In this document: in pieces, positions 7,675 to 28,296 of the stretch | How the letters are laid out: every line of letters begins with the position of its first letter | Position numbering within the stretch: the stretch's first letter is position 1 | Source of the DNA: Bacilli bacterium | Lineage (GTDB): Bacteria > Bacillota_I > Bacilli_A > RFN20 > CAG-826 | Assembly (NCBI GenBank): GCA_024680795.1 | Contig: JAILBR010000043.1 | Coordinates: forward strand, 1 to 61,780 | DNA length: 61,780 nt | Direction of reading: 5' to 3' | The notes under the pieces: generated by a model | What the model was told of the DNA's origin: nothing | Seen by the model: the letters and a program-made list of their open reading frames with translations, nothing else | Databases searched by the model: none | Made by a program: the position numbers and the translations under genes

Positions 7675-9444
7675 ATGAAAAATAAAGTCATCAGTGTCAT
7701 CGCTATTACAGGGGGACTAGTATTATCTAGCTGTGGAGGTAGTAATACCGAAGACACCACCAAAGAAAGAATTGTCACTAGAAATGTTTTTTCTCTTAGT
7801 GAAGATCAAAAAAGAGTAGAAAGTGTTGGAACATTAAACCTATTGTTTAAGGCTAATGGAGATATCCCATATATCTCTTTAAAAGATGGACTAGAATATA
7901 TCAACTTAATCCGTCACGCTAGAGTGAGTAAAGATTCTTCTATTTCACTTAAACAAGAAGAGAATAAAGCCACTTACACTTCTACTGATAACGCTCAAGT
8001 TGTTATCGACATGCAAGAACAAAGTATCACCTATAATGATTTCACTGGTTTCCTAAACCATGTTCAGCCATATAAAGATACATATTCTTTATTAACACCC
8101 TTTAAAGGTTCATCAATTCATCTAATCGATAACAAATATGAAAAAGGAAATAATTATACGGTTAGTTTAAAAAACTATAGTCAGATTGATATCTATAAGC
8201 ATGGTAATGATTTTTATATGCCACTAACGACATATAACGATTTATTTATCAACCCAAATACAATGACTAATCTTGTCTATAACTTTGAAAGGGTTTATCT
8301 ATTTTCAGGGAATGAAATCTTCTCCACAAAAAATGATGAAGGAGAAGATGTTTTAACCACATTAGGTAAATCATACTATAGTAGGAAAGCCACTGATCCA
8401 ACAGTGAGTAAAGAATACGCTGAATATTTTTATCAAAATATCTGTTTAAACTTTGATTACTTATATGGAGTTAAAGGATTAAAGGGAAGAGAATATACAA
8501 CATTTGATAACTATTTATCCACTAAAGGATATAAAACTGACTTATTAAGTGGAAATGTGAAAAAGATGGATGCCGCTTATGCATACGCTTTATCAGCATT
8601 AAAAGATTTCCATACCGTAGCGAGCAATTACTCTCCATTATATGAATTTGGTAAACATGATATCGATGTTGATAAATATGATGCTGAAAAAGTCAAAGAG
8701 GAGAAAGAAGAAGATACTCTTAATTTAGCAAGAGTGTTCTCAGGAGCATCTCTTGGTTTTTCAGTAGACACCACTAATAAGATTGCTTATATCGCTTTCA
8801 ATAACTTCTCTTCTGTTGATGAAAAAGCATTAAGCAAGAGTTCTTGGACTGAAGAAGACTTAGATAATAGCGCTACTCTATTCGCACATGCATATAAAGA
8901 AATCACTACCAAATATTTAGGTAGCATTGATTATGTCGCTGTCGATTTAGCCACTAATGATGGTGGAGCCGCTGATGGTATGGCGTATATGCTTGGTATT
9001 TTACTTGGTAGATACTCAATCGAGATACAAGATCCATGTACTGGTGCTCACGCAAAATCAACATATGCGGTTGATATTAATAGAGATGGCAAAGTCGATG
9101 AAGGTGATATCTCTTTAAGAGAATATGGTAAGAAAATCGTTTTCATTGATTCCCACTTCACTTTTAGCTGTGGCAATGCTTTACCAGTATTTGCAAAGCT
9201 CAATTATCCAAGCCAAGTTACCGCGATTGGTGAAACCACTGGTGGAGGTACATGTGTAGTGAGACCAGCCTATACTGCATTAGGTAGTTTATATAATATT
9301 TCTGGTATCCAAATGCTATCAAAAAGAAACGGTGAAAAACTTGTTAACATCGAAGATGGGGTAACTGCAGATATCCCTCTAAATGATGTCAGAGCGACAA
9401 TTGATAGAAACGCAGTTGCAAAAGCACTGTTAGAAAAAAAATAA
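7675..9444 (+). CDS. Lipoprotein, S41 family peptidase
   Basis: RBS GGAGGAGG; lipobox LSSC; VDLATNDGG, TFSCGN (catalytic Ser), IGETTGGG motifs. Confidence 0.8.
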   Translation: MKNKVISVIAITGGLVLSSCGGSNTEDTTKERIVTRNVFSLSEDQKRVESVGTLNLLFKANGDIPYISLKDGLEYINLIRHARVSKDSSISLKQEENKATYTSTDNAQVVIDMQEQSITYNDFTGFLNHVQPYKDTYSLLTPFKGSSIHLIDNKYEKGNNYTVSLKNYSQIDIYKHGNDFYMPLTTYNDLFINPNTMTNLVYNFERVYLFSGNEIFSTKNDEGEDVLTTLGKSYYSRKATDPTVSKEYAEYFYQNICLNFDYLYGVKGLKGREYTTFDNYLSTKGYKTDLLSGNVKKMDAAYAYALSALKDFHTVASNYSPLYEFGKHDIDVDKYDAEKVKEEKEEDTLNLARVFSGASLGFSVDTTNKIAYIAFNNFSSVDEKALSKSSWTEEDLDNSATLFAHAYKEITTKYLGSIDYVAVDLATNDGGAADGMAYMLGILLGRYSIEIQDPCTGAHAKSTYAVDINRDGKVDEGDISLREYGKKIVFIDSHFTFSCGNALPVFAKLNYPSQVTAIGETTGGGTCVVRPAYTALGSLYNISGIQMLSKRNGEKLVNIEDGVTADIPLNDVRATIDRNAVAKALLEKK

Positions 9445-9476
9445 CACAGCGATATTTGCTTTGTGAAAAGAAAAAC

Positions 9477-9498
9477 AACTCCCATTAATGGGAGTTTT
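9477..9498. terminator. Intrinsic terminator (bidirectional)
   Basis: AACTCCCA-TTAA-TGGGAGTT followed by a T-run. Confidence 0.7.
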
Positions 9499-9790
9499 TA
9501 TTATTATCTAATCTTTGTCTTTCGACAAGTTCAGCAAACTTACCATTCTTAGCGATTAAGGAATCATAAGTGCCTTCTTCGATACGTTTGCCATCAAATA
9601 AAATTTATCCTGACCATGGGGAATATAAGCCTGAGATGAGTTTAGATATTGTGGATTTGCCACTTCCAGTGCCACCGACAATTGCCACTTTTTGTCCTTG
9701 TTTAATCTTGAGGTTGAAGTTAGTGATAACTGGTTTATCTAATCTAGAATAACCAAATGTTAAATCTCTAAGGACAAGGTTACCTTTGAT
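9485..9790 (-). pseudogene. Chimeric fragment of NHLP-type bacteriocin ABC exporter genes
   Basis: [94 protein letters not shown]: Walker A region joined directly to an ABC C-terminal tail; TAA at 9605-9607; Q-loop, signature and Walker B missing. Confidence 0.7.
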
Positions 9791-9799
9791 TTTGATTTG

Positions 9800-9957
9800 T
9801 AATGTATATAAACAAATGACCAAACAAAAAACGCGATCATTGTAACAATCACAGCGCCCAAAACAATCCAAGTCACTGGGGAAGAGGATTGCAAATGTTT
9901 ATTTAAATCATCTGGATTAGTAATGCTGATGTCTTCTTTTCTAGTTGTATTTTTAAA
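9800..9957 (-). pseudogene. N-terminal fragment of NHLP-system secretion/membrane-fusion protein
   Basis: Manual translation [50 protein letters not shown] matches the SSPEQLN..L.VTSP..W..L pattern of that family. Confidence 0.55.
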
Positions 9958-10029
9958 TTGTGTTAACAGGTATAGGTAATGATGGTGCCAGTGACTCTCG
10001 CCGAGACATCATTTTTATTTTTCTATAAA

Positions 10030-10230
10030 AAATCCCCAAAGGTTTTAACGCTCATCCATTGGGGATCCGGACATGCCGTCGCATAATCCTAGTTAGAAAA
10101 TTTCACGAAAGGAGTATTATGACCAAATGCGTCTAATCTCGATTCCCACTTGCACTCATGGAAATCTTATGTGCAAACCCTCTATAGGCAACTAGAGGGG
10201 ACGTCATAGGAGGTGAGTATGACGGATTTA
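10030..10230. other. Structured intergenic element (putative cis-regulatory RNA or small RNA)
   Basis: Stems ATCCCCAA/TTGGGGAT (T-run follows on minus strand), TTGCAC/GTGCAA, CCCTCTA/TAGAGGG, GTCATA/TATGAC, plus long-range CCGTC/GACGG. Confidence 0.4.
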
Positions 10231-10301
10231 TTTTCTGAAAACATGATATATCCCCCTTATTTCCAATACAATGTACAGATTGTTCAAAAATAAATGACCC
10301 T

Positions 10302-10517
10302 CTAAATTAGAAGGCCATCGATTGAGGTGGAAAGGATTTTTGCTATCTTAATTAATTGATCATAACTAGGACATCTTTGACCACTTTGCCAGAAGTAGAC
10401 CGCTCGAGTTGAGACATCTAATTCATCAGCGAGTGATTCTTTTGTCACTTTCCTCTCTTTCATCAACTGATAGAGATTTGTACTGAATCGGTTGATGTTG
10501 TGCTTTTTCACATTCAT
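10302..10517 (-). CDS. XRE-family helix-turn-helix transcriptional regulator
   Basis: LADELDVSTRAVYFWQSGQRCPSYDQLIKIAKIL. Confidence 0.9.
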   Translation of the reverse strand: MNVKKHNINRFSTNLYQLMKERKVTKESLADELDVSTRAVYFWQSGQRCPSYDQLIKIAKILSTSIDGLLI

Positions 10518-10580
10518 CTTCTCTTTCCTCCAAATATTCGAATCCAGTACCAGATGAATGAGTGTGTTTATTTTATATAA

Positions 10581-11738
10581 CTATTTATAAATTGGAAAGT
10601 ATTTCTTGTAATATTCTTTTAAGTTTTCCTCAGTTGCATGTCTATATTGTTCTATAACTTTGAGGAACTCTTTATAACAACTATCAGCGACATCAATACC
10701 ATCGATAAGAAGTACATCGTTTGTTTCAGAAGAAGTGAATTTATATAACTCACTTATTCCGTTTGTGAGAATGACCGACAACTCTAAAAAGTTAAAAAGC
10801 GGATATTCATGTCCGAGGTTAGAACCATGAACATATCCATGGCACAATTTGTAATATCCAGTTAAATTAGAGAAATGCTGCCCAGAGCGTGAGTCTAAAT
10901 ATGTTATCAAGCCTTCAATGGAATATGGTCTTTCTTTGACGATATCATGATATCCTTCAATCGTGTCTACCCAGCCAAAGTGAAGATAATTGCTTAAGGA
11001 ACGTTCGGTTTTATTACTTCTATCTTCAAAGAATGTTCGAACGTCTTTTTTATTTTCTTGGCCCAAACTCTTTTGTAAATCTAGTTCGATACATTTTGAA
11101 AACATAGTTATAGAATTTGGATTTAGCTTTAAAACGTTAAGCTTTATCGCTGCTTCTAGCATCGCTCTTGCGTGTGGATAGGCGTTTGCGAATAAGTTAT
11201 CGCTCATGAGAGATATCGTGGTTAAAGATTCAGTGAATAAACTTAAGTATAAAGGTATGTACTTGCTTTCTTTCAATGCTGCGATATATTCACGACATTT
11301 AGAGTGAATGACCGCAAGATCGAAAAGGATTGGCATATAGATAAATCTATCGCCCAAAATTAATGGCCTTCTAATTAATAGTCCTTGCACACGATTTCTT
11401 AGTTTAATTTGATAGATGACTTTGTTTATTAAGTTCTTACGATATTCTTTATCTTCTTCTAATTTCTTTCTATCTTCATCATTTAAATACATCACGTTAG
11501 AACGATGAACGTAGACAATATGTAAACACACTTCATAAAAAGCGAAGTTATCTAAATCTAATTTAATCGCAGACTCCAACTTTCCATCTAGTGTTCGATA
11601 ATAATTATCATATTCAGGGAACAACTTAAAAATGTCATACATCATTTTAATCATAAAGTTGACATTTATCTGCCCTTTGAACACAGTTTTTAGAGCTTTG
11701 TGTCCTTGTTTTTGAAGTTGTTCAATTTCATTTTCCAT
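10581..11738 (-). CDS. DUF5677/HEPN-like protein
   Basis: C-terminal half AYPHARAMLEAAIKL...HFGW...YKLCHGYVHGS; start taken at ATG 11738 (track uses upstream TTG). Confidence 0.6.
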   Translation of the reverse strand: MENEIEQLQKQGHKALKTVFKGQINVNFMIKMMYDIFKLFPEYDNYYRTLDGKLESAIKLDLDNFAFYEVCLHIVYVHRSNVMYLNDEDRKKLEEDKEYRKNLINKVIYQIKLRNRVQGLLIRRPLILGDRFIYMPILFDLAVIHSKCREYIAALKESKYIPLYLSLFTESLTTISLMSDNLFANAYPHARAMLEAAIKLNVLKLNPNSITMFSKCIELDLQKSLGQENKKDVRTFFEDRSNKTERSLSNYLHFGWVDTIEGYHDIVKERPYSIEGLITYLDSRSGQHFSNLTGYYKLCHGYVHGSNLGHEYPLFNFLELSVILTNGISELYKFTSSETNDVLLIDGIDVADSCYKEFLKVIEQYRHATEENLKEYYKKYFPIYK

Positions 11739-11976: not shown

Positions 11977-12150
11977 CCGTTATAACAAACCTATAAAAAC
12001 ATGTAAATAAATAAGAATACCTATAAACATGCTTTTTGTTGTTTTCCTTCTTCAATCTTAAACACATCAATATTCGAAGTTTTAAACTTCTTAATCAATA
12101 TATTAAAGTCCAAAGGCGTAAGTTCGGACGTAACTCGCCCTACAAGATTT
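11977..12150 (-). ncRNA. Predicted TnpB omegaRNA (reRNA) scaffold
   Basis: Region overlapping the tnpB 3' end to the right end; CATGTTT(TT)ATAGG direct repeats; position follows established TnpB biology, 5' boundary is a guess. Confidence 0.55.
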
Positions 12151-13256
12151 TTTAAATTAATCGCCGCATTAATGTCTCTATCGATAACAAGTCCACATTT
12201 AAAACACTTATAAGTTCTTGTGTTTAATTTAAGTATTTCGACTTTATTACCACAAAAAGAACAGGTTTTAGATGATGGATAATATTTATCCGCGATAATA
12301 ATTTGGCAGCCATATAATTGGCTTTTATATTCTAACTCTTTTCTAAAACGATATAAGCCAAGCTTTTGTAATCTTCTCGCAACATTCCTATCACCTTTCA
12401 TTTTTTGAATTGATAAGTCTTCAATACAAATGTAACGATAGGAATTAGTTAAGATATAGCTAACTTTATGTTCAAAATCTCTTTTGATGTTATCTAGTCT
12501 TTCCAATTGATTATCAAGTTTTCTTTTTTGTTTGAAATAATTTTTCGAAAAGATTTTAGGATCATCTTTGGTTCTCGGATGAACTTTTCTAGATAACACC
12601 TTTTGAGTTTTGATTATCTTGCTTATTTGCTTATTAATGCTTTCTGGATAATTAACGATCAATCCATTAGATAAAGCGATATTGTTCTTAATTCCTAAAT
12701 CTAAACCGATTGCATCGTAATTATCATTGTTTATACTTTTGATTGTTTCATCAACTTCGACATTGATAGAGACATAATATTTATCAAATTTTCTTGTTAT
12801 TCTACAGCCAGTGATATGACCGGCAAACCTTATATGTTCATTGAGTTTAATAGGAAGCATTTTTGGAAGTTTAATATAATCTTTATCAACGCCTTCTTTT
12901 TTAATCATTTTCATTTGATCTCCACCAATATAGAAGGATTGAAAGGTATCTTTCTTGCTTTTGAAATGAAGCATATTCCCATTCATTTTAAAGGATTTAA
13001 TACTTCTTAATGAATCCTTAAAATCCATAAAAGGTTCTTGAGAAACATATTTACTCATTTCATAAACAAATGGGAACTCAACTTTCTTTAAAGCATTGAA
13101 TTTCTTTTTTAATTTATAAATATCAAAATCAATAGAATTCTTGTTATATTGTTCTAATATCCAGTTATAAGTAAATCTTGCCACCCCAAAAGACTTTTCA
13201 ATAAATGTTCTTTGTTTATTATTTGGATATATCCTGATCTTCTGAGAGAGTATCAT
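12021..13256 (-). CDS. tnpB: RNA-guided endonuclease TnpB
   Basis: HTH_OrfB N-terminus (KIRIYPN...SFGVARFTYNW), RuvC-I GLDLG, RuvC-II IEDL, zinc finger PSSKTCSFCG...CFKCG, RuvC-III DRDINAAINL. Confidence 0.95.
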   Translation of the reverse strand: MILSQKIRIYPNNKQRTFIEKSFGVARFTYNWILEQYNKNSIDFDIYKLKKKFNALKKVEFPFVYEMSKYVSQEPFMDFKDSLRSIKSFKMNGNMLHFKSKKDTFQSFYIGGDQMKMIKKEGVDKDYIKLPKMLPIKLNEHIRFAGHITGCRITRKFDKYYVSINVEVDETIKSINNDNYDAIGLDLGIKNNIALSNGLIVNYPESINKQISKIIKTQKVLSRKVHPRTKDDPKIFSKNYFKQKRKLDNQLERLDNIKRDFEHKVSYILTNSYRYICIEDLSIQKMKGDRNVARRLQKLGLYRFRKELEYKSQLYGCQIIIADKYYPSSKTCSFCGNKVEILKLNTRTYKCFKCGLVIDRDINAAINLKNLVGRVTSELTPLDFNILIKKFKTSNIDVFKIEEGKQQKACL

Positions 13257-13875
13257 TTACTACTTTATTCATCCCTTCTATTAGTTTTTTATTCTTTTTA
13301 CTTCTAGAGCCATATAATCTAGCAGATAGCACTGTTATTATTTCTAAAACATCTTTTGCAAGCTCTTCTTCAAATGATGGGTTTTCTTCCCCTTTGTTAA
13401 TGATAATAACTTCTACTTCTTTAGCTTCGCATATAGAGAATATTAGTTCAGCACCGAAACGAAGAAGTCTATCTTTATGAGTGATAACTAGCCTTTTGAC
13501 CTGACCATCTAAAATAAGATTTATGAGATTAGTAAGACCTTTTTTATAGTAATTCATCCCCGAACCTAAATCGGATATAATTTCATATTTATATCCTTTT
13601 TGGGCACAGTATAATTCTAGAACTTGAATCTGTCTTTCTAGGTCTTTCTTTTGGTCGTTAGAACTAACTCTAGCATAGGCGATAGTTTTCAAATCATCTT
13701 GATTGGTTATTATTCTTCTATCAATCTTTTTTAAAGAATCAATATTATATCTTCTCGCCCCGCCAGGAGTAATTTCATCTGGCTTTAATTTGCCATCTTT
13801 ATCCCAGTTTCTTAATGTTTGAATGGTTACTCCAAGCATTTTAGAAGCTTTACCTATAGACACTAGTTTACTCAT
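13219..13875 (-). CDS. tnpA: IS607 TnpA serine recombinase
   Basis: MerR-like HTH (SIGKASKMLGVTIQTLRNWD), YARVSS catalytic Ser, DRLLRFG. Confidence 0.95.
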   Translation of the reverse strand: MSKLVSIGKASKMLGVTIQTLRNWDKDGKLKPDEITPGGARRYNIDSLKKIDRRIITNQDDLKTIAYARVSSNDQKKDLERQIQVLELYCAQKGYKYEIISDLGSGMNYYKKGLTNLINLILDGQVKRLVITHKDRLLRFGAELIFSICEAKEVEVIIINKGEENPSFEEELAKDVLEIITVLSARLYGSRSKKNKKLIEGMNKVVNDTLSEDQDISK

Positions 13876-13967
13876 GACTTTATGGTACCATATTCAAAAG
13901 ATAATTTCTATATTTTCTTTACACTTTTTTATTGAATTTTATAGATATTTTGTTGCAGTTAGTAGCC

Positions 13968-14583
13968 CATTTATCCATTTTCTTTAATGAGGCTGGTCTG
14001 GTAAAGAATTTTTAATCTTTTCCACTTTAGTGGATGTAGGTGTTCCAATATCTAAATAAATGATTTCGTCTTTGAAGATATTTAAAAGGAACTTATATTT
14101 CTTTTCACTAATTTTATTTTCTTTATAGATTCTTTCGATTAGTTCTCTTAATGATTCTTTTTCTTTAGAAATTAAGATAGCCATGAATGGTTTATTGTAT
14201 CCTTTAACTGATTTAATTTCTTCCATCACTGCGTCACTAGTCAATGAATTTTCACTGACATAAAATAATGTGCCCTTACATGCATATGGAGCGATAAATC
14301 TTGTTGCTACTTCTTTCCAATTTTTTCCTACAGGTATTCCACGATCATACCAAATAGGTAGTCCCTCCATTTGTAAATCAAAAATATCGCAGTACACATC
14401 TACATAATCTTTATGTGAATAGGAAACGAAATAATACTCGTTGGTGATAATATCAGGAAGATATATTGTTGGTATTGAATATAAGTCGTTTGACCTAATA
14501 ATATTCTTCTTGATTTGAACCTGTTCTTTAGGGGAACGCGTTTCTAATTCTTTGATCTCAATAAAGGTTGCTTTTTCCATCAT
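13968..14583 (-). pseudogene. TIR-domain protein, 5' part of a disrupted TIR-LRR gene
   Basis: TIR motifs FVSYSHKD, IWYDRGIPVGKNW, SLTSDAVMEEI; ORF 13984-14583 ends at a frame jump, and the alternative frame reads PASLKKMDKW up to the IS left end. Confidence 0.75.
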
Positions 14584-16837: not shown

Positions 16838-18541
16838 TTATACGTTTTGTAGATTACTATAGTAGTCTTCTAGTTTCTTTCTTGAGGCAACATAGAACTT
16901 TTTTAAACTTGGATCGAAGTGTTTTCCCATGCCTTCCATAATTATCTTATTAGCCTCTTCAAACGACATGCTTTCTTTATAGACACGTTTACTGACAAGC
17001 GCATCATAAACATCTGCGATGGCCATAATACGCGCTTCAAAAGGAATGCTTTCGCCTTTAAGTTTATTTGGATATCCACTACCATCCCATCTTTCATGAT
17101 GATAATGAGCTACATTGACTGCGATATTCATAAAATCAATATCATCAGTGCCTTCTAGAATTTGTTTAACGATCCTTGCTCCTTCGGAAGCATGTGTTTT
17201 CATTATCTCAAATTCCTCTGGGGTAAACTTTCCTGGTTTTCTTAATATTGCATCATCAACTGCAATCTTCCCTAAATCATGCATAGGAGCGGCTTTAATT
17301 AGATTATTACAGAAGGTATCAGAAAGATTTAATGTGTTATCTTTCTTAATCTCACCCACTATGATTCTTATGCAATCACTAGTTCTTTTAATATGGCCGC
17401 CTGTAGAGTTATCTCTACCTTCAACCATAGTAGCCATACCAACAACCAGCTTTTCTTGCATTTCAATAACGCTTTTAGTTTTCTTATTAACTTCTTCTTC
17501 AAGTTGATTATTATACTGCTTGATAAGTTTGATATATTGCTGGTTTGCGGTATCATCCGTCATTAAAAATTGATATCCGCGGTGCATGCTTCCAACTGAC
17601 AATCTGTTAATATAGACGAGATATGTTTTGTTTTCGCGTTCAAATAGCCTTGTATTTTTAGTTTCATCGTTTTCAAATTCTGCTACCCAAGGGAGCAAAT
17701 TCTCTTTTAACCATTGGCTGTTATCAACGCGATGATCCACTACTAGAACGTTGAGCTCTGGTAACATCTCTTTTGCGGTTTCGTTGCTTCCTAGATATCT
17801 CATCTTATTATCAAAGGAAATAAACCCTGTTTCACCTTTTTGCACTAATGAATCAATAACGGAGTCAGAAGCATCATATAATCTTAATCGAGAAGCAATG
17901 ACCATATAAATTATCATGCCCATGTTATACGTGGCTGGTAATAGTTCCATCTCTTTAGTAATGAGTCTGCTGCCAAAGAAACCGATAACGGAAGTAGATA
18001 TAGCTATAACAATTAAGATCAAAATGGTCTTAGACACTTGTTTCTTTTTAAAGAAAGAATAAATGATAACTCCTATTGTAACAGCATAGAATAGGCCAAT
18101 CATGACGTAAAACACAGTGTGCATTGGTCCATAGTGTTTATCAGTGATATAGGCCGCTTCACCATAATAAGCAATAGAGGGCATACCTTGGTAGAAGATA
18201 TCAGTTTGCCCAATAGTAGTTGCACAAACATAAACACCAGTGGAAATAGCAATAATTAGAGTACGTATCCACGGTTTTAGAGGAATACCACAGGTATTAA
18301 ATATCAAAAACATGGCAGCTACTAAAACATAACAACCACCAATATAAGTGAATTTCAAAGCATTTAGTGCTCCTTCAACAGTAGTAGAATTTCCCATTAA
18401 AACGAACGCTAAGTTAATAACAGGGACTAGCACTGTCATGATGGTCAAGTTAGCGTCAAAATGCTTATGAAAAATAAACGCGTATATAATGACTAACGCT
18501 AGTGATAATCCAAGCATCGAATAATAAAACACCATTACCAT
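16838..18541 (-). CDS. Membrane HD-GYP phosphodiesterase with N-terminal 7TM (HisKA_7TM-like) sensor
   Basis: ~7 hydrophobic segments; TGGHIKR, MHDLGK, HHERWDGSGYP, IADVYDAL. Confidence 0.9.
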   Translation of the reverse strand: MVMVFYYSMLGLSLALVIIYAFIFHKHFDANLTIMTVLVPVINLAFVLMGNSTTVEGALNALKFTYIGGCYVLVAAMFLIFNTCGIPLKPWIRTLIIAISTGVYVCATTIGQTDIFYQGMPSIAYYGEAAYITDKHYGPMHTVFYVMIGLFYAVTIGVIIYSFFKKKQVSKTILILIVIAISTSVIGFFGSRLITKEMELLPATYNMGMIIYMVIASRLRLYDASDSVIDSLVQKGETGFISFDNKMRYLGSNETAKEMLPELNVLVVDHRVDNSQWLKENLLPWVAEFENDETKNTRLFERENKTYLVYINRLSVGSMHRGYQFLMTDDTANQQYIKLIKQYNNQLEEEVNKKTKSVIEMQEKLVVGMATMVEGRDNSTGGHIKRTSDCIRIIVGEIKKDNTLNLSDTFCNNLIKAAPMHDLGKIAVDDAILRKPGKFTPEEFEIMKTHASEGARIVKQILEGTDDIDFMNIAVNVAHYHHERWDGSGYPNKLKGESIPFEARIMAIADVYDALVSKRVYKESMSFEEANKIIMEGMGKHFDPSLKKFYVASRKKLEDYYSNLQNV

Positions 18542-18620
18542 ATGATAGATTTTATCACTTTATATATAAAGAGATAATATGAACATATAATTTATTACAT
18601 ACAATCAGAAAAAAGTGCGA

Positions 18621-18652
18621 AAAAAAAAGTGGCTTTTCTAACCGATTGCCAC
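18621..18652 (-). terminator. Terminator-like 3' end of the large ncRNA
   Basis: Minus strand GTGGC...GCCAC followed by TTTTTTTT. Confidence 0.55.
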
Positions 18653-19690
18653 AAACCGTCCCGCTGAAGCAGGGGCGAGCCCTGCGACAGTTTCAAGTTA
18701 AGTTCCATTAGGCTGGTGGTGCTTCTTGTCGTCGACTTGTTTTGAACTGATTAGCAAGTCGGTGGCCAGCTTCCTCTAGTTATTAGCTTTGAGGCTGTTT
18801 CCCTTTTTGTCATGACCGGTACTGGATTTACTCCGTCAAACTTTAACGCGGATGCCAGTGAGTGCAAGCACTCAGGGAGGGACGTACCGATGATTGAGGC
18901 TTTCGCTTCAACCCTTTGCTAGTGCAACCATTTAACTGCGGCTCTTTAATCCTCAGAAGTCCACCATCAATTTCATGGACTTGGTTGGCTTACCTAGTCT
19001 TAAGCTCATTAGACCTTTTCTTCGCGATAGATACCAGGAGTTTGCAGCTCTATCGCTATCTCCACACATTAGGTTGAGGAATGTGGATTAGGCTTGCCTT
19101 CTCCTATTGGAAGTTGGCTATTTCTACCTCTTCGATCATGTCCGGCGGTGGTATTACGCTGTTAAGCTATAACTCAGCGACCACTGTAACAGGGAGGCTT
19201 GCCGTTTAGCCACAACTGAATTGTGGACAGGTCCCTTGCGATCATTGACCAGAGGATTTAACTCTGGAGGCCTTACTATCAACGTCGTGTAATGGCTGAT
19301 CGTCTCTTTTAAGGGGCCAAACTCTTTAATGCCTATCTTCGTGGAGTGTTTGGCTTCACTTATTTCGCGCTTTGAGTTGACTTTAACGCGACTTGGCTCT
19401 TCACTAGGTTATTGGCCTCGTGAATTCGTTTTTCAATTCTCCTCTTCGTTCGTGTCGGGCGGTGGTATTACGCTGTTAAGTTCTAACTCAGCAACCACTC
19501 TAGGAGGGAGGAGGGACCCTTGGAAGGCTCCGAGGAGCCGACCTGCCAGTGCAACCTTTAATCCAAGACTTTTTAACCTTGGAACCACTGTGTCAACTTC
19601 GTTAACGCGTAGGTTGTCTTACCTGGTCTTGAGATACAAATAACTATCGTTATTTTTATCTCATCCACTCGGTTTCCCGTGTGGATTAGT
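18625..19690 (-). ncRNA. Large ORF-less ornate ncRNA candidate (~1.06 kb; ROOL/GOLLD-class by size and style, family unassigned)
   Basis: GC roughly 45-50% by eye versus very AT-rich flanks; dense hairpins; internal 59-nt repeat at 53/59 identity; sigma-A promoter and terminator on the minus strand; no credible ORF; no group I/II intron, RNase P, tmRNA or rRNA signatures recognised. Confidence 0.75.
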
Positions 19691-19692
19691 AT

Positions 19693-19721
19693 AGTATGCG
19701 CTTTTTTATTTTTTTCGTCAA
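19693..19721 (-). promoter_or_regulatory. Sigma-A promoter of the large ncRNA
   Basis: TTGACG (19721-19716) - 17 nt - CATACT (19698-19693), with A-rich UP-like region upstream. Confidence 0.6.
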
Positions 19722-19898
19722 TACATTTTTTTAATTTTTTTTACTTTTTTTCAAAATAATAAAGTATATCTCTTTAGAGATATAAAAATTTTAATTTTTT
19801 TAAAAAATATTTTTGTACTTATTTTACTACTATTAATATACGCGCATGCGTATAAATATTTATTTAATATATAGATATATAAAAGAAAAAAGGCTTTT

Positions 19899-21887
19899 TT
19901 ATAATTCAGCCTTCATTTCCATAATAATATCTCTTAATTCGATAGCTCTTTCGAAGTCAAATTCTTTGGCGGCTTGTCGCATTTGTTTCTCTAATTCCTT
20001 AATTCGAGCCTCGATTTCTTTTCTAGAACCATGCTTTGTGATCTTAACCATATCCGCAATTTCATCGTCTGAATTATGGATTGGCGGCCTAATCTCTTTA
20101 ATGATGGTTTGAGGAACAATGCCATTTTCGAAGTTATATTGTTCTTGAATATGCCTTCTTCTATTGGTTTCATCAATTGCGTTACGCATTGAATCGGTAA
20201 CTGTATCTGCGTACATTATTACTAAACCGTTCGCGTTTCTAGCTGCTCTACCGATGACTTGAATTAAACTTCTAGTGCTTCTTAAGAATCCTTCTTTATC
20301 TGCATCTAAAATAGATATTAAAGATACTTCAGGGATGTCTAATCCTTCTCTTAATAAGTTGATACCCACTAAAACATCATATTTACCTTTTCTTAGTTGA
20401 TAAATAATCTCACTTCTTTCCAAAGTTTTGGTCTCATGATGAAGATATATAACCTTAATACCTCTTTGTTTTAAGTATTCTGTAAGGTCTTCCGCCATTT
20501 TGATGGTCAAAGTTACAAGCATAACGCGTTCGTTTTTCTCCACTCTTTTCTTAATCTCAAAAAGAATGTCATCAATTTGACCCATTGTAGGTCTAATTTC
20601 CACTTTAGGATCAAGTAGACCTGTAGGTCTAATAATCTGTTCAGCGATAGGGGCATCGGTTTTATTTAACTCATAATCCCCTGGAGTAGCAGATGTACAA
20701 ATGACTTGTGGCATCAATTCTTCAAACTCATTAAAGTTAAGTGGTCTATTATCTAAAGCACTTGGAAGTCTAAAGCCGTATTCCACAAGTGTTTCTTTTC
20801 TACTTCTATCACCAGCGTACATACCTCTAATCTGTGGGAATGATACGTGCGACTCATCAACAAATAGTAAAAAGTCTTTAGGAAAATAATCGATTAAGCA
20901 AAATGGTCTTTGTCCTGGCTCTCTTTTATCGATATGTCTTGAATAATTCTCAATGCCAGGGCACATTCCAAATTCTTGCATGTTTTCAATATCTTGATTT
21001 GTTCTCATTTCAAGACGTTCGGCTTCAAGAAGTTTTCCTTCTTTTCTAAAGTATTCCAATCTTTCTTCTAACTCAGCACGTATTGTTTCACACGCTTCTT
21101 TGATTCTTTGTCTTGTGGAAGCATGGTCATAGGCTGGAAAAATAGGATACGTATGATATGAGTGTTTAATTTCACCTGTCAAAAGATCAACTTCATATAT
21201 CTTTTCTATCTCATCACCAAAAGTATCAATTCTAATAACTGTATTATCTTCAGCATTAGCAGGAACTATCTCAATGATATCTCCTCTTACTCTAAAGCTT
21301 CCTGGCGGGGTATCGAGATTATTTCTCTTATATTGAGCATCCACTAACGACTTATAGAATTCTTTTCTATCTATTTCTTCTCCAACACGGATTTCAAAAA
21401 CGAGATCACGGTATTCATCTGGATCAATTAAGCCATAGATAGAAGCAACAGAAGCAACGATAATCGTATCTCTTCTTTCAATGACAGAATTAATAGCGGA
21501 TGTTCTGAGCATTTCAATCTCATCGTTCATTACCGCGTTCTTATCAATATATGTGTCGCTTTTTGGAATGTAAGCTTCTGGTTGATAAAAATCGAAGTTA
21601 CTGACAAAATACTCAACACGATTATTTGGAAATAATTCTTTAAACTCAGAATAAAGCTGGCCTGCAAGTGTTTTGTTATGAACCATGATTAAAGCAGGAC
21701 GTTGAACACGCTCGATAATGTTGGCCATAGTAAAGGTTTTTCCAGTACCTGTTGCACCTAATAGCACTTGGAACTTTTTACTAGATTCTATACCCTTTAC
21801 AAGTTGGTCAATTGCGGTGGGTTGATCACCAGTTGGTTTGAATTTAGAAACTAACTCAAATTTATGTGAATTATCGATATTTTTCAT
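19899..21887 (-). CDS. uvrB: Excinuclease ABC subunit B
   Basis: [51 protein letters not shown]-terminal UVR motif. Confidence 0.98.
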
Positions 21888-26473: not shown

Positions 26474-27118
26474 CTATTTATTTTTATGTAAAACATTCTT
26501 TGCTATAACTAATACCTCTATTTTCTTTGGTTTTCCTGTCATAACTAAGTTAATAGCAGCGTTCATACTAGAACCAGTTGTATAGACATCATCAACTATT
26601 AAAATTTTCTTGTTATTTACAGCGTCTAGATCAGTAATTGTGAAGTTTTTTTGAGATGATATTCTTTGCTTTCTGGTCTGTTTAGCCTGCTTATGATTTT
26701 CTACTTTTTTCAGGATGTTCAGCACAGGAAGATTTAACCCACTATAAATCTCAACAACATGATTGAATCCTCTCTTCTTATCATCTAATTCAAATGAGGG
26801 AACCGGAACTATGTAATATCCTCTATATTTGATTCTTAAAAACCATAAGTATCTCGCTAAAAACACATCCTTAAGTTCAATGTCATAACATCCCTTAAAC
26901 TTAAATAATAGCTCTTTTATCGTTTGATCATACTCATATATCGCCATGCCTTTGATGTCTCTAACATGAAAATGTATAAATCGTGGATTAAACTTAGAAA
27001 AGCACTCTTCACATAATACATTCTCTCCGTCAATTAAGTTATGAAATGAGTTATCTTTAATCTCTTGGAAGCATATCTTGCAATGCTTTATTGGACTTGA
27101 TAATACTAGCACGTGCAT
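26474..27118 (-). CDS. comFC: ComF family (ComFC) phosphoribosyltransferase-like competence protein
   Basis: CKIC...CEEC zinc finger, RGFNHV, ILIVDDVYTTGSS. Confidence 0.9.
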   Translation of the reverse strand: MHVLVLSSPIKHCKICFQEIKDNSFHNLIDGENVLCEECFSKFNPRFIHFHVRDIKGMAIYEYDQTIKELLFKFKGCYDIELKDVFLARYLWFLRIKYRGYYIVPVPSFELDDKKRGFNHVVEIYSGLNLPVLNILKKVENHKQAKQTRKQRISSQKNFTITDLDAVNNKKILIVDDVYTTGSSMNAAINLVMTGKPKKIEVLVIAKNVLHKNK

Positions 27119-28220
27119 CCTCCATTTCTTTGGTTATTTTTTTAGCAATAAAGACCACATCACCGTGTGGATCATCTATCTTTCTTCCTGCTCTTCCAGC
27201 TATCTGAACGAGTGTACCTTTATCGTATATTTTGTTGTCTGAATTAAAGACAATGACATCAGACTCTTTTATGGTTACTCCTCGCTCTAAAACCGAAGTT
27301 GTTACTAAAAATTTCCATGTTTTGCACCTAAATTCATGAATTACGCTATTTCTTCCATCTCTTTTCGAATGAACGTAATTGCCATGTTTAAATAGCATTG
27401 ATAGAATTTTATATAGCGATTCACATTCGCTAATTGTTGGAGTAAAAACAAAAGCTTGTCTATTTCTTCTTAATATATTTTTAAGCGTAATATATAGATG
27501 ATAGTATCTTGATATCAAATGGCCTATTTTAAAAATCGGGACCGGTAATGGATGTCCATGAAATCTTGTGTTTAGTGACAAGATATCTTTTCCAGCTTGT
27601 TTAAATAAATTAATCACTTCCTCACTTGGTGTTGCAGACATTAAAATATAGTGCCCATTTAAAGAATTAAAGAAAATGTTTTTCAACACTTCATTATCTT
27701 TGAAAGGGAAAGCATCTATTTCATCTAGCACAATTAGGGCAAAATATTTTTTGTATCGATATAATTGGTGTGTGGTTAAAACAACAAGGTCTGCTTCTAC
27801 TTCATCATGGTGCCCACCATAGACAGATATTACAGTGTTTTTAATGAATATTTCTTTTAACCTATTTGTTAGTTCTATAACAACATCTCTTCTAGGTACT
27901 GCGAATGCCACTTTGTCGCCACAATTAATCGCGTATTTAATAACATTTAGCGATATTTCTGTTTTGCCAGATCCACACACGGCAAAAACTAAACTATCTA
28001 TGCCTTTCTTATAGTTCTCAACTAACTTATTCGATAATTCTTTTTGCTCTGGAGATAATTCATACTCGAGATGAATAGGCGCTTTTTTAGGGTATGAAGG
28101 TTTATGTTCTACTTCTTCGCCTCGAAAAGAGATACACCTACGACAATAGGGTTTACCGTTGAGATATCCTATAGAATGTATATCAGTATTACCACATATT
28201 GGGCATTTATAAGTTTCTAT
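27057..28220 (-). CDS. comFA: Competence DEAD/DEAH helicase ComFA
   Basis: CPICG...CRRC, AVCGSGKTE, DEIDAFP, MSATP, TTSVLERGVT, QIAGRAGR; start appears to be ATA at 28220 behind an AAGGAG RBS. Confidence 0.9.
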   Translation of the reverse strand: METYKCPICGNTDIHSIGYLNGKPYCRRCISFRGEEVEHKPSYPKKAPIHLEYELSPEQKELSNKLVENYKKGIDSLVFAVCGSGKTEISLNVIKYAINCGDKVAFAVPRRDVVIELTNRLKEIFIKNTVISVYGGHHDEVEADLVVLTTHQLYRYKKYFALIVLDEIDAFPFKDNEVLKNIFFNSLNGHYILMSATPSEEVINLFKQAGKDILSLNTRFHGHPLPVPIFKIGHLISRYYHLYITLKNILRRNRQAFVFTPTISECESLYKILSMLFKHGNYVHSKRDGRNSVIHEFRCKTWKFLVTTSVLERGVTIKESDVIVFNSDNKIYDKGTLVQIAGRAGRKIDDPHGDVVFIAKKITKEMEDARASIIKSNKALQDMLPRD

Positions 28221-28296
28221 ATTGCAACATCTCCTTTCTTTTGATTTAATATTTGTAGTGAGCAAGCACATAGGGGCTGTAAAAGGCGCGTGTAGC

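Follow-up and report, generated by a model that had tools for sequence, protein, structure and literature searches.

A large structured RNA of rumen Bacilli as a probable head-to-tail trimer of one 310-nucleotide module

The DNA analysed here is a stretch of 61,780 nucleotides (nt) from a Bacilli bacterium (GTDB lineage Bacteria; Bacillota_I; Bacilli_A; RFN20; CAG-826; assembly GCA_024680795.1, contig JAILBR010000043.1, positions 1 to 61,780), and the whole of it is called the window below. On its minus strand, with uvrB, yitT, prfB and secA as upstream neighbours and a gene for a 7TM-HD protein as downstream neighbour, lies an island of 46-49% GC (about 18620-19690), in a genome of 35% GC. 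We conclude with good confidence that this island is a stand-alone gene for a structured non-coding RNA, and that in this RNA three copies of a self-folding module of about 310 nt are covalently joined head to tail, as a trimer. The predicted RNA is about 1,071 nt long, from about 19690 to 18620, and would consist of a 60-nt leader, three units of 312, 317 and 302 nt, and an 80-nt trailer with a terminator. Judging from the sequence, its start is probably near 19686-19690. A unit is defined as running from helix Pa through the receptor, both described below, and is represented by a profile of 308 positions. R1, R2 and R3 are short repeats pointed out in a preliminary description of the locus. 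In the order of transcription the parts are as follows.

19693-19721, minus strand: sigma-70-type promoter, TTGACG, 17-nt spacer, CATACT, found by consensus scan
19631-19690, minus strand: 5' leader with two hairpins, 19685-19682/19667-19664 and 19662-19649/19644-19631 (GAUAG loop), from RNAalifold and pair counts
19319-19630, minus strand: unit 1 (312 nt), profile match positions 1-308, E 2.4e-63; holds R2 19632-19612, R3 19561-19544 and R1 19499-19441
19002-19318, minus strand: unit 2 (317 nt), profile match 19306-19002, positions 11-308, E 1e-57; holds the R1 copy 19185-19127
18700-19001, minus strand: unit 3 (302 nt), profile match positions 1-308, E 6.7e-56; holds the R2 copy 19003-18983, the R3 copy 18935-18917 and a third R1 copy 18861-18802
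18620-18699, minus strand: 3' trailer, a long stem (about 18700-18696/18657-18653) with inner helices, then the intrinsic terminator
18652-18620, minus strand: intrinsic terminator, GUGGC 18652-18648 / GCCAC 18633-18629 followed by U9 18628-18620, by direct reading

The signals at both ends of the gene are kept in relatives. The promoter blocks TTGAC and CATACT are found in 11 homologous loci, the same promoter stands ahead of the RNA in three metagenome contigs, and the homologous loci keep the promoter, the entire body of about 1,070 nt and the terminator. The leader helices show changes on both sides in 9 of 12 pairs and the terminator stem in 4 of 5. By consensus scan and direct reading, no internal promoter or terminator was found inside the gene. 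Does the region code for protein? The longest open reading frames (ORFs) in it have 60-119 codons and none is conserved, so that coding potential was rejected. A 104-codon ORF at 19329-19643 on the plus strand, antisense to units 1 and 2, is an artefact of the GC-rich island which annotation pipelines could miscall.

The claim of the preliminary description that the RNA is composed of duplicated modules holds, since one profile matches all three units. Moreover, the copies do map to equivalent structures, with the same fold in each unit. The alignment of the three unit classes extends over their whole length and takes in the 3' half of unit 3, a highly conserved stretch that was at first taken for a unique 3' domain or tail. 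Profiles of the 5' parts of the units were made from 11 genomes after the cow-rumen-1 motif (see below) had been taken out; that of each unit matched both others in register, at E-values as low as 3e-15. Therefore far more than a hairpin is repeated.

Each unit contains one match to the Rfam family cow-rumen-1 (RF02946), all three above its gathering score of 53.4 bits. The third had been overlooked in the preliminary description.

19441-19501, minus strand: cow-rumen-1 match in unit 1, 78.6 bits, E 4.9e-17
19127-19187, minus strand: cow-rumen-1 match in unit 2, 83.9 bits, E 1.4e-18
18802-18861, minus strand: cow-rumen-1 match in unit 3, 65.2 bits, E 3.9e-13

The helices of the RF02946 hairpin are 94-100% paired, with compensatory changes in all units, and in every unit the hairpin is followed by the conserved strand CCGGACAYGAUCGAAGAGG, so that the stems and this 3' strand are common to all three R1-type copies. 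The stems GUGG/CCAC and GCUG/CAGC recognized in the preliminary description are the stems of this family. The Rfam entry (61 nt, filed as small RNA) takes in about 20% of a module, or about 6% of the whole RNA. The 3' strand that it shows as "unpaired" is here part of an H-type pseudoknot, and the apical loop of the entry pairs about 160 nt downstream. Every RF02946 match is part of a module of about 310 nt, and the RNAs that carry the modules measure about 335 nt, about 1.07 kb or about 1.7 kb and have a promoter and a terminator of their own; since the matches are always within a larger RNA, a free-standing small RNA of about 61 nt is not what the loci contain. The family comes from a 2017 survey of 224 candidate structured RNAs, and the motif is not discussed in its main text (PMC5737381). 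In our literature search cow-rumen-1 or RF02946 was named in no searchable paper, nor was the large repeat-domain RNA described; of the module, the 61-nt hairpin in Rfam is the only part that is catalogued. A permissive Rfam 15 search gave no family beyond cow-rumen-1 for the large RNA or its single-module relatives. Within 18400-19950 at E <= 10, the only other matches were three at sub-threshold, chance level (12-21 bits), none to a large-RNA family, and no other Rfam family reached its gathering score anywhere in the window.

How does the module fold? A structure alignment of 23 RNAs, 60-76% identical to the window copy, gave 231 consensus pairs, which are 92.3% paired, compared with 81.6% after shuffling of the partners and 31-43% after sliding them by 1-3 columns. 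Changes on both sides were seen in 144 of the 231 pairs, and the observed measures were reached by none of 500 shuffles. Taken alone, the six tertiary helices reach 96.4% pairing and have 12 compensatory pairs, where 5.7 would be expected from shuffles (0/500). From 5' to 3' the module consists of a junction domain (domain A, with helices Pa and Pb), a variable hairpin Pe, an H-type pseudoknot with the cow-rumen-1 hairpin, two linker hairpins with the conserved loops AAUAAC and UCAACU, and a 6-nt receptor, which directly abuts helix Pa of the next module. Three long-range pairings per unit are supported by covariation. The helices and pairings are located as follows.

19545-19628, minus strand: domain A of unit 1, Pa 19628-19623/19549-19545 and Pb 19618-19611/19557-19551 (R2 pairs with R3)
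Minus strand: inner helices of domain A in unit 1, Pc 19610-19607/19588-19585 and Pd 19582-19576/19569-19563 (UUAAA loop)
Minus strand: diverged R2/R3 helix of unit 2, Pa 19318-19314/19234-19230 and Pb 19304-19297/19244-19238, with compensatory changes
18999-18918, minus strand: equivalent of domain A in unit 3
19319-19483, minus strand: loop-receptor pseudoknot of unit 1, GAACUU 19483-19478 / GAGUUU 19324-19319, 99.3% of cells paired, 4/6 compensatory
19002-19169, minus strand: loop-receptor pseudoknot of unit 2, UAGCUU 19169-19164 / GAGCUU 19007-19002, 98.6% paired, 3/6 compensatory
18700-18843, minus strand: loop-receptor pseudoknot of unit 3, AAGUUU 18843-18838 / GAACUU 18705-18700, 98.6% paired, 2/6 compensatory
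19375-19598, minus strand: pairing of domain A with linker hairpin 2 in unit 1, AGUUGA 19598-19593 / UCAACU loop 19380-19375
Minus strand: the same pairing in unit 2, 19284-19279/19077-19072, and unit 3, 18972-18967/18750-18745
19127-19204, minus strand: H-type pseudoknot of unit 2, in which S1 (CGGC 19204-19201 / GCCG 19146-19143) crosses CCUC 19197-19194 / GAGG 19130-19127, with the cow-rumen-1 hairpin between
Minus strand: S1 in unit 1, 19519-19516/19460-19457, and unit 3, 18889-18886/18820-18817
Minus strand: closing helix of unit 3, 18882-18877/18805-18800, with U-A, A-U and C-G variants

Helix Pb of domain A is 100% paired, with 5 of 7 pairs compensatory. S1 is a 4-bp helix of the form NGGY/RCCN which covaries in units 1 and 2; its outer pair is seen as C-G, A-U and G-C, and its inner pair as C-G, U-A and U-G. 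The pairing between domain A and linker hairpin 2, in general form RUUGA with UCAAY, has the compensatory variants AGUUAA/UUAACU, AGUCAA/UUGACU, AGUUGC/GCAACU, AAUUGA/UCAAUU and AACUGA/UCAGUU.

The loop-receptor pairs were detected by a covariation scan and inspection, and each receptor lies about 160 nt downstream of its loop. Among 78 RNAs, unit 1 has 18 loop/receptor combinations, nearly all of which pair 6/6. In the same set unit 2 shows the variants AGCU/AGCU, AACU/AGUU and AGUU/AACU, and unit 3 shows GAGUUU/GAACUC, AAGCUU/GAGCUU and CAGUUU/GAACUG. Cognate loops and receptors are 99% paired, compared with 73-96% for non-cognate combinations, and the share of Watson-Crick pairs is 74-86% in the former and 41-69% in the latter. 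The two R1 copies in units 1 and 2 differ exactly at the address nucleotides of the loop, and the receptors differ to match. The most conserved nucleotides of the RNA are unpaired and occur once per unit: CCGCCGGACAYGAUCGAA, CCUCCCUG, UAAGACUAG and AAUGAUUGC.

Is the loop-receptor contact made within a unit or between units? The isolated cow-rumen-1 matches in six relatives turned out to be stand-alone RNAs of about 335 nt, each with a promoter region and a terminator. They have the same element order as one unit and match the unit profile at positions 31-265, with E down to 5e-19 at the six loci. Loop and receptor covary in them too (GGACU/AGUCC vs GAGCU/AGCUC), as does the counterpart of the domain A pairing, GUUGA/UCAAC, which is GCUGA/UCAGC at locus L026. 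Since this single-module RNA holds the same loop-receptor pair, the contact is within the unit and the unit folds alone. A daisy chain of loop-receptor pairs between neighbouring modules had been considered and was dropped, because the single-module RNA shows the pair within one unit. The trimer arose by tandem duplication of the single-module RNA, which is still a separate gene in relatives; the three positions then diverged, each with a loop/receptor sequence of its own. No single-module copy was found in the source genome, which is 74% complete.

The single-module loci are L026 (G022:C21), L027 (G034:C37), L028 (G021:C38), L157 (G247:C31), L025 and L156. Four of the six genes, from at least three genera, are immediately upstream of comFA and divergent from it, and the N-terminus of ComFA at those loci is 57-85% identical to the product of window positions 27057-28271.

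Only one family of Bacilli, uncultured bacteria of the rumen, carries the RNA, and at least six of its genera have it in the order U1-U2-U3 (units 1 to 3). The motif occurs in 19 of 61 relatives and in further genera of the family, almost always as triplets spaced by 300-330 nt; outside the family, none was found among 301 sampled genomes of the order and 399 sampled genomes of the class. A degenerate 19-nt motif scan of the genome collection was too loose and gave mostly chance matches. A specific 3' pattern matched 87 metagenome contigs, and the same pattern had no match among 2.9 million viral contigs. All copies are kept in the homologues: 23 genomic genes have the order U1-U2-U3, every complete locus reads U1-U2-U3-trailer, and the 64 complete metagenomic genes comprise 55 with U1-U2-U3, 8 with U1-U2-U1'-U2-U3 and one with U1-U2-U3-U3-U3 (L175). 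Therefore the architecture is not an assembly chimera, a possibility that the preliminary description had raised for the case that homologues lacked either copy. On four contigs (L160, L216, L217 and L234) two complete three-unit genes stand directly in tandem, with 3' motifs 1146-1340 nt apart. One contig (L174) has apparently seven units, with three U1'-U2 pairs; these are 100% identical, so their copy number may be an assembly artefact.

The source genome itself (1.33 Mb in 72 contigs) has 11 cow-rumen-1 matches, 3 in the window and 8 on another contig, C53. The latter carries two paralogous genes on its minus strand (locus L024), at 12143-13093 and 9152-10686, about 1.5 kb apart, one with three units and the other with five (U1-U2-hybrid-U2-U3). 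The five units are 60-72% identical to each other and thus not an assembly artefact, and each loop in the five-unit RNA matches the receptor of its own unit. Units within one RNA are 60-67% identical, while positional orthologues between the paralogues of the source genome are 74-88% identical. This indicates that the triplication is old and that each position has its own identity.

Is the RNA expressed as one molecule? Among the 64 complete metagenomic genes, 25 are on contigs of the size of the RNA; these measure about 1.00-1.05 kb, and those of the five-unit forms about 1.68 kb. Their first nucleotide falls 5-30 nt inside the leader and their last ahead of the U tract. Most of the flanked contigs stem from other sample series. 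From their ends and sizes, it is possible that they are assemblies derived from transcripts.

Several points weigh against the reading of the locus as an expressed trimer of self-folding modules. Some of the RNA-sized contigs may owe their ends to breaks of the assembly in the extremely AT-rich flanks, and the promoter is included in three to four contigs of the same sample series. All sequences come from metagenome-assembled genomes or metagenome contigs. The CCUC/GAGG helix of the H-type pseudoknot is invariant in units 1 and 2, so its support comes from unit 3 and from the RNAs with a single module. The loop-receptor pairing and the 3-bp inner stem of the Rfam model share nucleotides, and the two may therefore alternate. 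The E-values of the covariance model that is used below for R2 and R3 are rough. As five-unit variants exist, the number three is not fixed. Finally, covariation is unable to separate intramolecular from intermolecular pairing, and in ROOL a covarying contact taken as "tertiary" turned out to be a quaternary kissing loop (PMC12286853).

The comparison with ROOL is of wider concern. ROOL, GOLLD and OLE are large ornate bacterial RNAs that form RNA-only homo-oligomers, and ROOL and GOLLD reside in phages or prophages, often near tRNA islands (PMC12286853). The RNA described here, at about 1.07 kb, exceeds both GOLLD, with members above 800 nt, and ROOL, with about 580-660 nt. Like these three, it is densely structured, has several covarying pseudoknots or kissing-type contacts, is found in the rumen and in Bacillota, and brings together repeated copies of one fold. 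Unlike in ROOL and GOLLD, whose chains are identical and assembled non-covalently, the copies of the fold are covalently joined and diverged, and the RNA is not in phages and not near tRNAs but is confined to one bacterial family. No covariance-model match to ROOL, GOLLD, OLE, raiA, HEARO or other large Rfam RNAs was found. It is a large and ornate bacterial RNA, unusual in being made of repeated domains.

What could such an RNA do? The surroundings of the gene give little hint. Across 36 loci, any one gene family is a neighbour of the RNA in 5 at most; only the window copy has uvrB and the 7TM-HD gene beside it, and none of the window neighbours stands beside the metagenomic copies. With no recurrent neighbour, no phage match and a terminator of its own, the RNA is neither a cis-regulator nor an obvious partner of an adjacent protein. 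In particular, with its own terminator (18652-18620) and variable neighbours, it is not a 5' untranslated region with an expression platform. Here we infer a function rather than observe one. Each module would fold alone and display the same invariant unpaired nucleotides listed above, and the RNA would bind three copies of one partner (the longer variants five). Candidates for this partner would be a protein, a small ligand or another RNA. The action would be scaffolding or sequestration, not antisense pairing or cis-regulation. We propose this role of a stable multivalent platform or scaffold tentatively, as a possibility to which we give less than even weight.

RNAs with a repeated binding element in one chain are familiar, as in the CsrB/RsmZ sponges and the glycine riboswitch, where the repeat number varies between homologues. 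In both respects CsrB/RsmZ and tandem-aptamer riboswitches are like the present RNA. Unlike in CsrB/RsmZ, the repeat here is a pseudoknotted domain of 310 nt and not a short GGA hairpin; no array of GGA loops was seen in the RNA, and no search for CsrA was made. Unlike the glycine riboswitch, the RNA controls no downstream gene, as it has its own terminator and variable neighbours.

An alternative is that some of the covarying contacts are intermolecular, and that the RNA may form RNA-only oligomers, filaments or cages by analogy with ROOL, GOLLD and OLE. The best candidate for a contact in trans is the palindromic AGCU loop/receptor of unit 2, as in many members its loop and its receptor have one and the same self-complementary sequence. 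The still considerable pairing of non-cognate loops and receptors (73-96%), the quaternary nature of the ROOL contact mentioned above, and the existence of both single-module and concatenated forms are also in line with it. However, loops and receptors are equal in number in each RNA, and the cognate pairs are the best matched, both in pairing and in Watson-Crick share. We consider this alternative unlikely.

The RNA might also be a precursor, namely a 1.07-kb transcript that is cut into three monomer RNAs of about 310 nt, like a polycistronic array of small RNAs. A stand-alone single-module gene exists, the units are structurally self-contained with sharp borders because each receptor abuts the next Pa, and the unit number varies between 3 and 5, all of which would suit such a precursor. 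But internal promoters or terminators are absent from the gene, and the 25 contigs span the whole RNA and nothing else, including the five-unit forms of 1.68 kb. Moreover, the positional identities of U1, U2 and U3 are kept across genera, which would be unnecessary for equivalent products. Processing of this kind thus seems rather improbable.

Then what is the true order of the repeats? In the preliminary description it was given as R2-R3-R1 ... R1-R2-R3, and taken as roughly 1.5 units of a circularly permutable domain. The repeats themselves are as described there. The R1 pair (19441-19499 and 19127-19185) is identical at 53 of 59 positions and extends to 71-76 nt at 87% identity (BLAST E 1.5e-21). 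The R2 pair (19612-19632 and 18983-19003) is identical at 18 of 21 positions, and the 61.8-kb window has exactly two occurrences of its 19-nt core, where shuffles predict 0.00. R3 lies at 19544-19561 and 18917-18935, with two occurrences of its 13-nt core in the window against 0.09 expected from shuffles. CCCUCC/CCUCCC tracts and CGCGUUAAAGU (19390, 18850) recur too. The order, however, was wrong, since the third R1 copy at 18861-18802, which comes after the second R2-R3 pair on the minus strand, and a diverged R2/R3 at 19308-19235 had been overlooked. R2 and R3 are the two strands of one helix. A covariance model built from the R2 to R3 domains of units 1 and 3 of other genomes only gave three matches in the window, at 78.3 bits (19630-19542), 83.6 bits (19001-18915) and 24.5 bits (19308-19235, with a rough E of 0.0013), and the domain of the middle unit was also recovered by profile searches. 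The third R1 and the R2/R3 of the middle unit therefore make the order (R2-R3-R1) x3, a simple tandem array of 3.0 units. The order appears permuted when only the strongest repeat pairs are visible, and these are all that BLAST and a repeat finder detect: self-BLAST gave the R1 pair only, with profiles needed for the other repeats, and Tandem Repeats Finder found no long-period array at the locus because the units are only 60-67% identical. Against a permuted arrangement stand the R2/R3 helix of the middle unit, the third R1 copy, the three contiguous full-length matches to the unit profile, and the single-module homologue, which keeps the same linear order of elements. Together they refute it.

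That the locus is not an RNA at all, and is a DNA-level repeat (satellite, recombination sites or origin), a degenerate coding region or an assembly artefact, we consider next to impossible: it is a tandem repeat within a metagenome-assembled genome with a 104-codon ORF on the opposite strand, but the 144 base pairs with compensatory changes are specific to one strand, their G-U pairs being on the minus strand, promoter and terminator are kept in relatives while the ORFs of 60-119 codons are not, the same architecture is found in more than 75 independent assemblies, and the units, being only 60-67% identical, assemble without ambiguity.

Some observations on the surroundings of the gene should be added. 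The setting is chromosomal, and the window contains no tRNA gene. The downstream neighbour at 16838-18541 encodes the 7TM-HD (HD_5) protein, and at one locus of a relative (L011) a paralogue 50-54% identical to it stands upstream of the RNA instead. Because the gene is not seen beside any other copy, this neighbourhood is probably a coincidence. Further away, an IS607-type element occupies window positions 11977-14583, with a serine recombinase with a MerR helix-turn-helix (13219-13875) and TnpB (12021-13256), and adjoins a TIR-domain ORF (13984-14583). It has no relation to the RNA.

What does the RNA mean for the evolution of large RNAs in this family? Bacterial non-coding RNAs above 500 nt are very few. 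To our knowledge, each large one that has been studied (rRNA, RNase P, group II introns, OLE, ROOL and GOLLD) showed unusual biochemistry or architecture. The idea in the preliminary description, that duplication within the chain could replace contacts between molecules of a multimeric RNA cage or double a binding site, would fit with there being both single-unit and 3- or 5-unit forms. One scenario, which we hold to be doubtful, is that the single-module RNA is a homo-oligomer, and that the genes with three, five and possibly seven modules are covalent concatemers that build the same multi-protomer particle. If this were true, the step from quaternary structure to tandem-domain tertiary structure of an RNA would be captured in living genomes, and the diverged "addresses" of loops and receptors would prevent mispairing of neighbouring modules. 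The RNA would then be the first natural pseudo-symmetric repeat-domain RNA, and among the largest bacterial non-coding RNAs outside rRNA. The design, in which diverged pseudoknotted domains of 310 nt are joined in one chain while a single-domain relative survives, is absent from searchable papers. For Rfam there is a correction to be made, as the 61-nt "sRNA" entry covers only a small piece of an RNA that is about 1.07 kb long and reaches about 1.7 kb in variants. The family thus offers a natural system for how RNA domains duplicate, diverge and avoid mispairing, and its RNA is a good target for cryo-electron microscopy.

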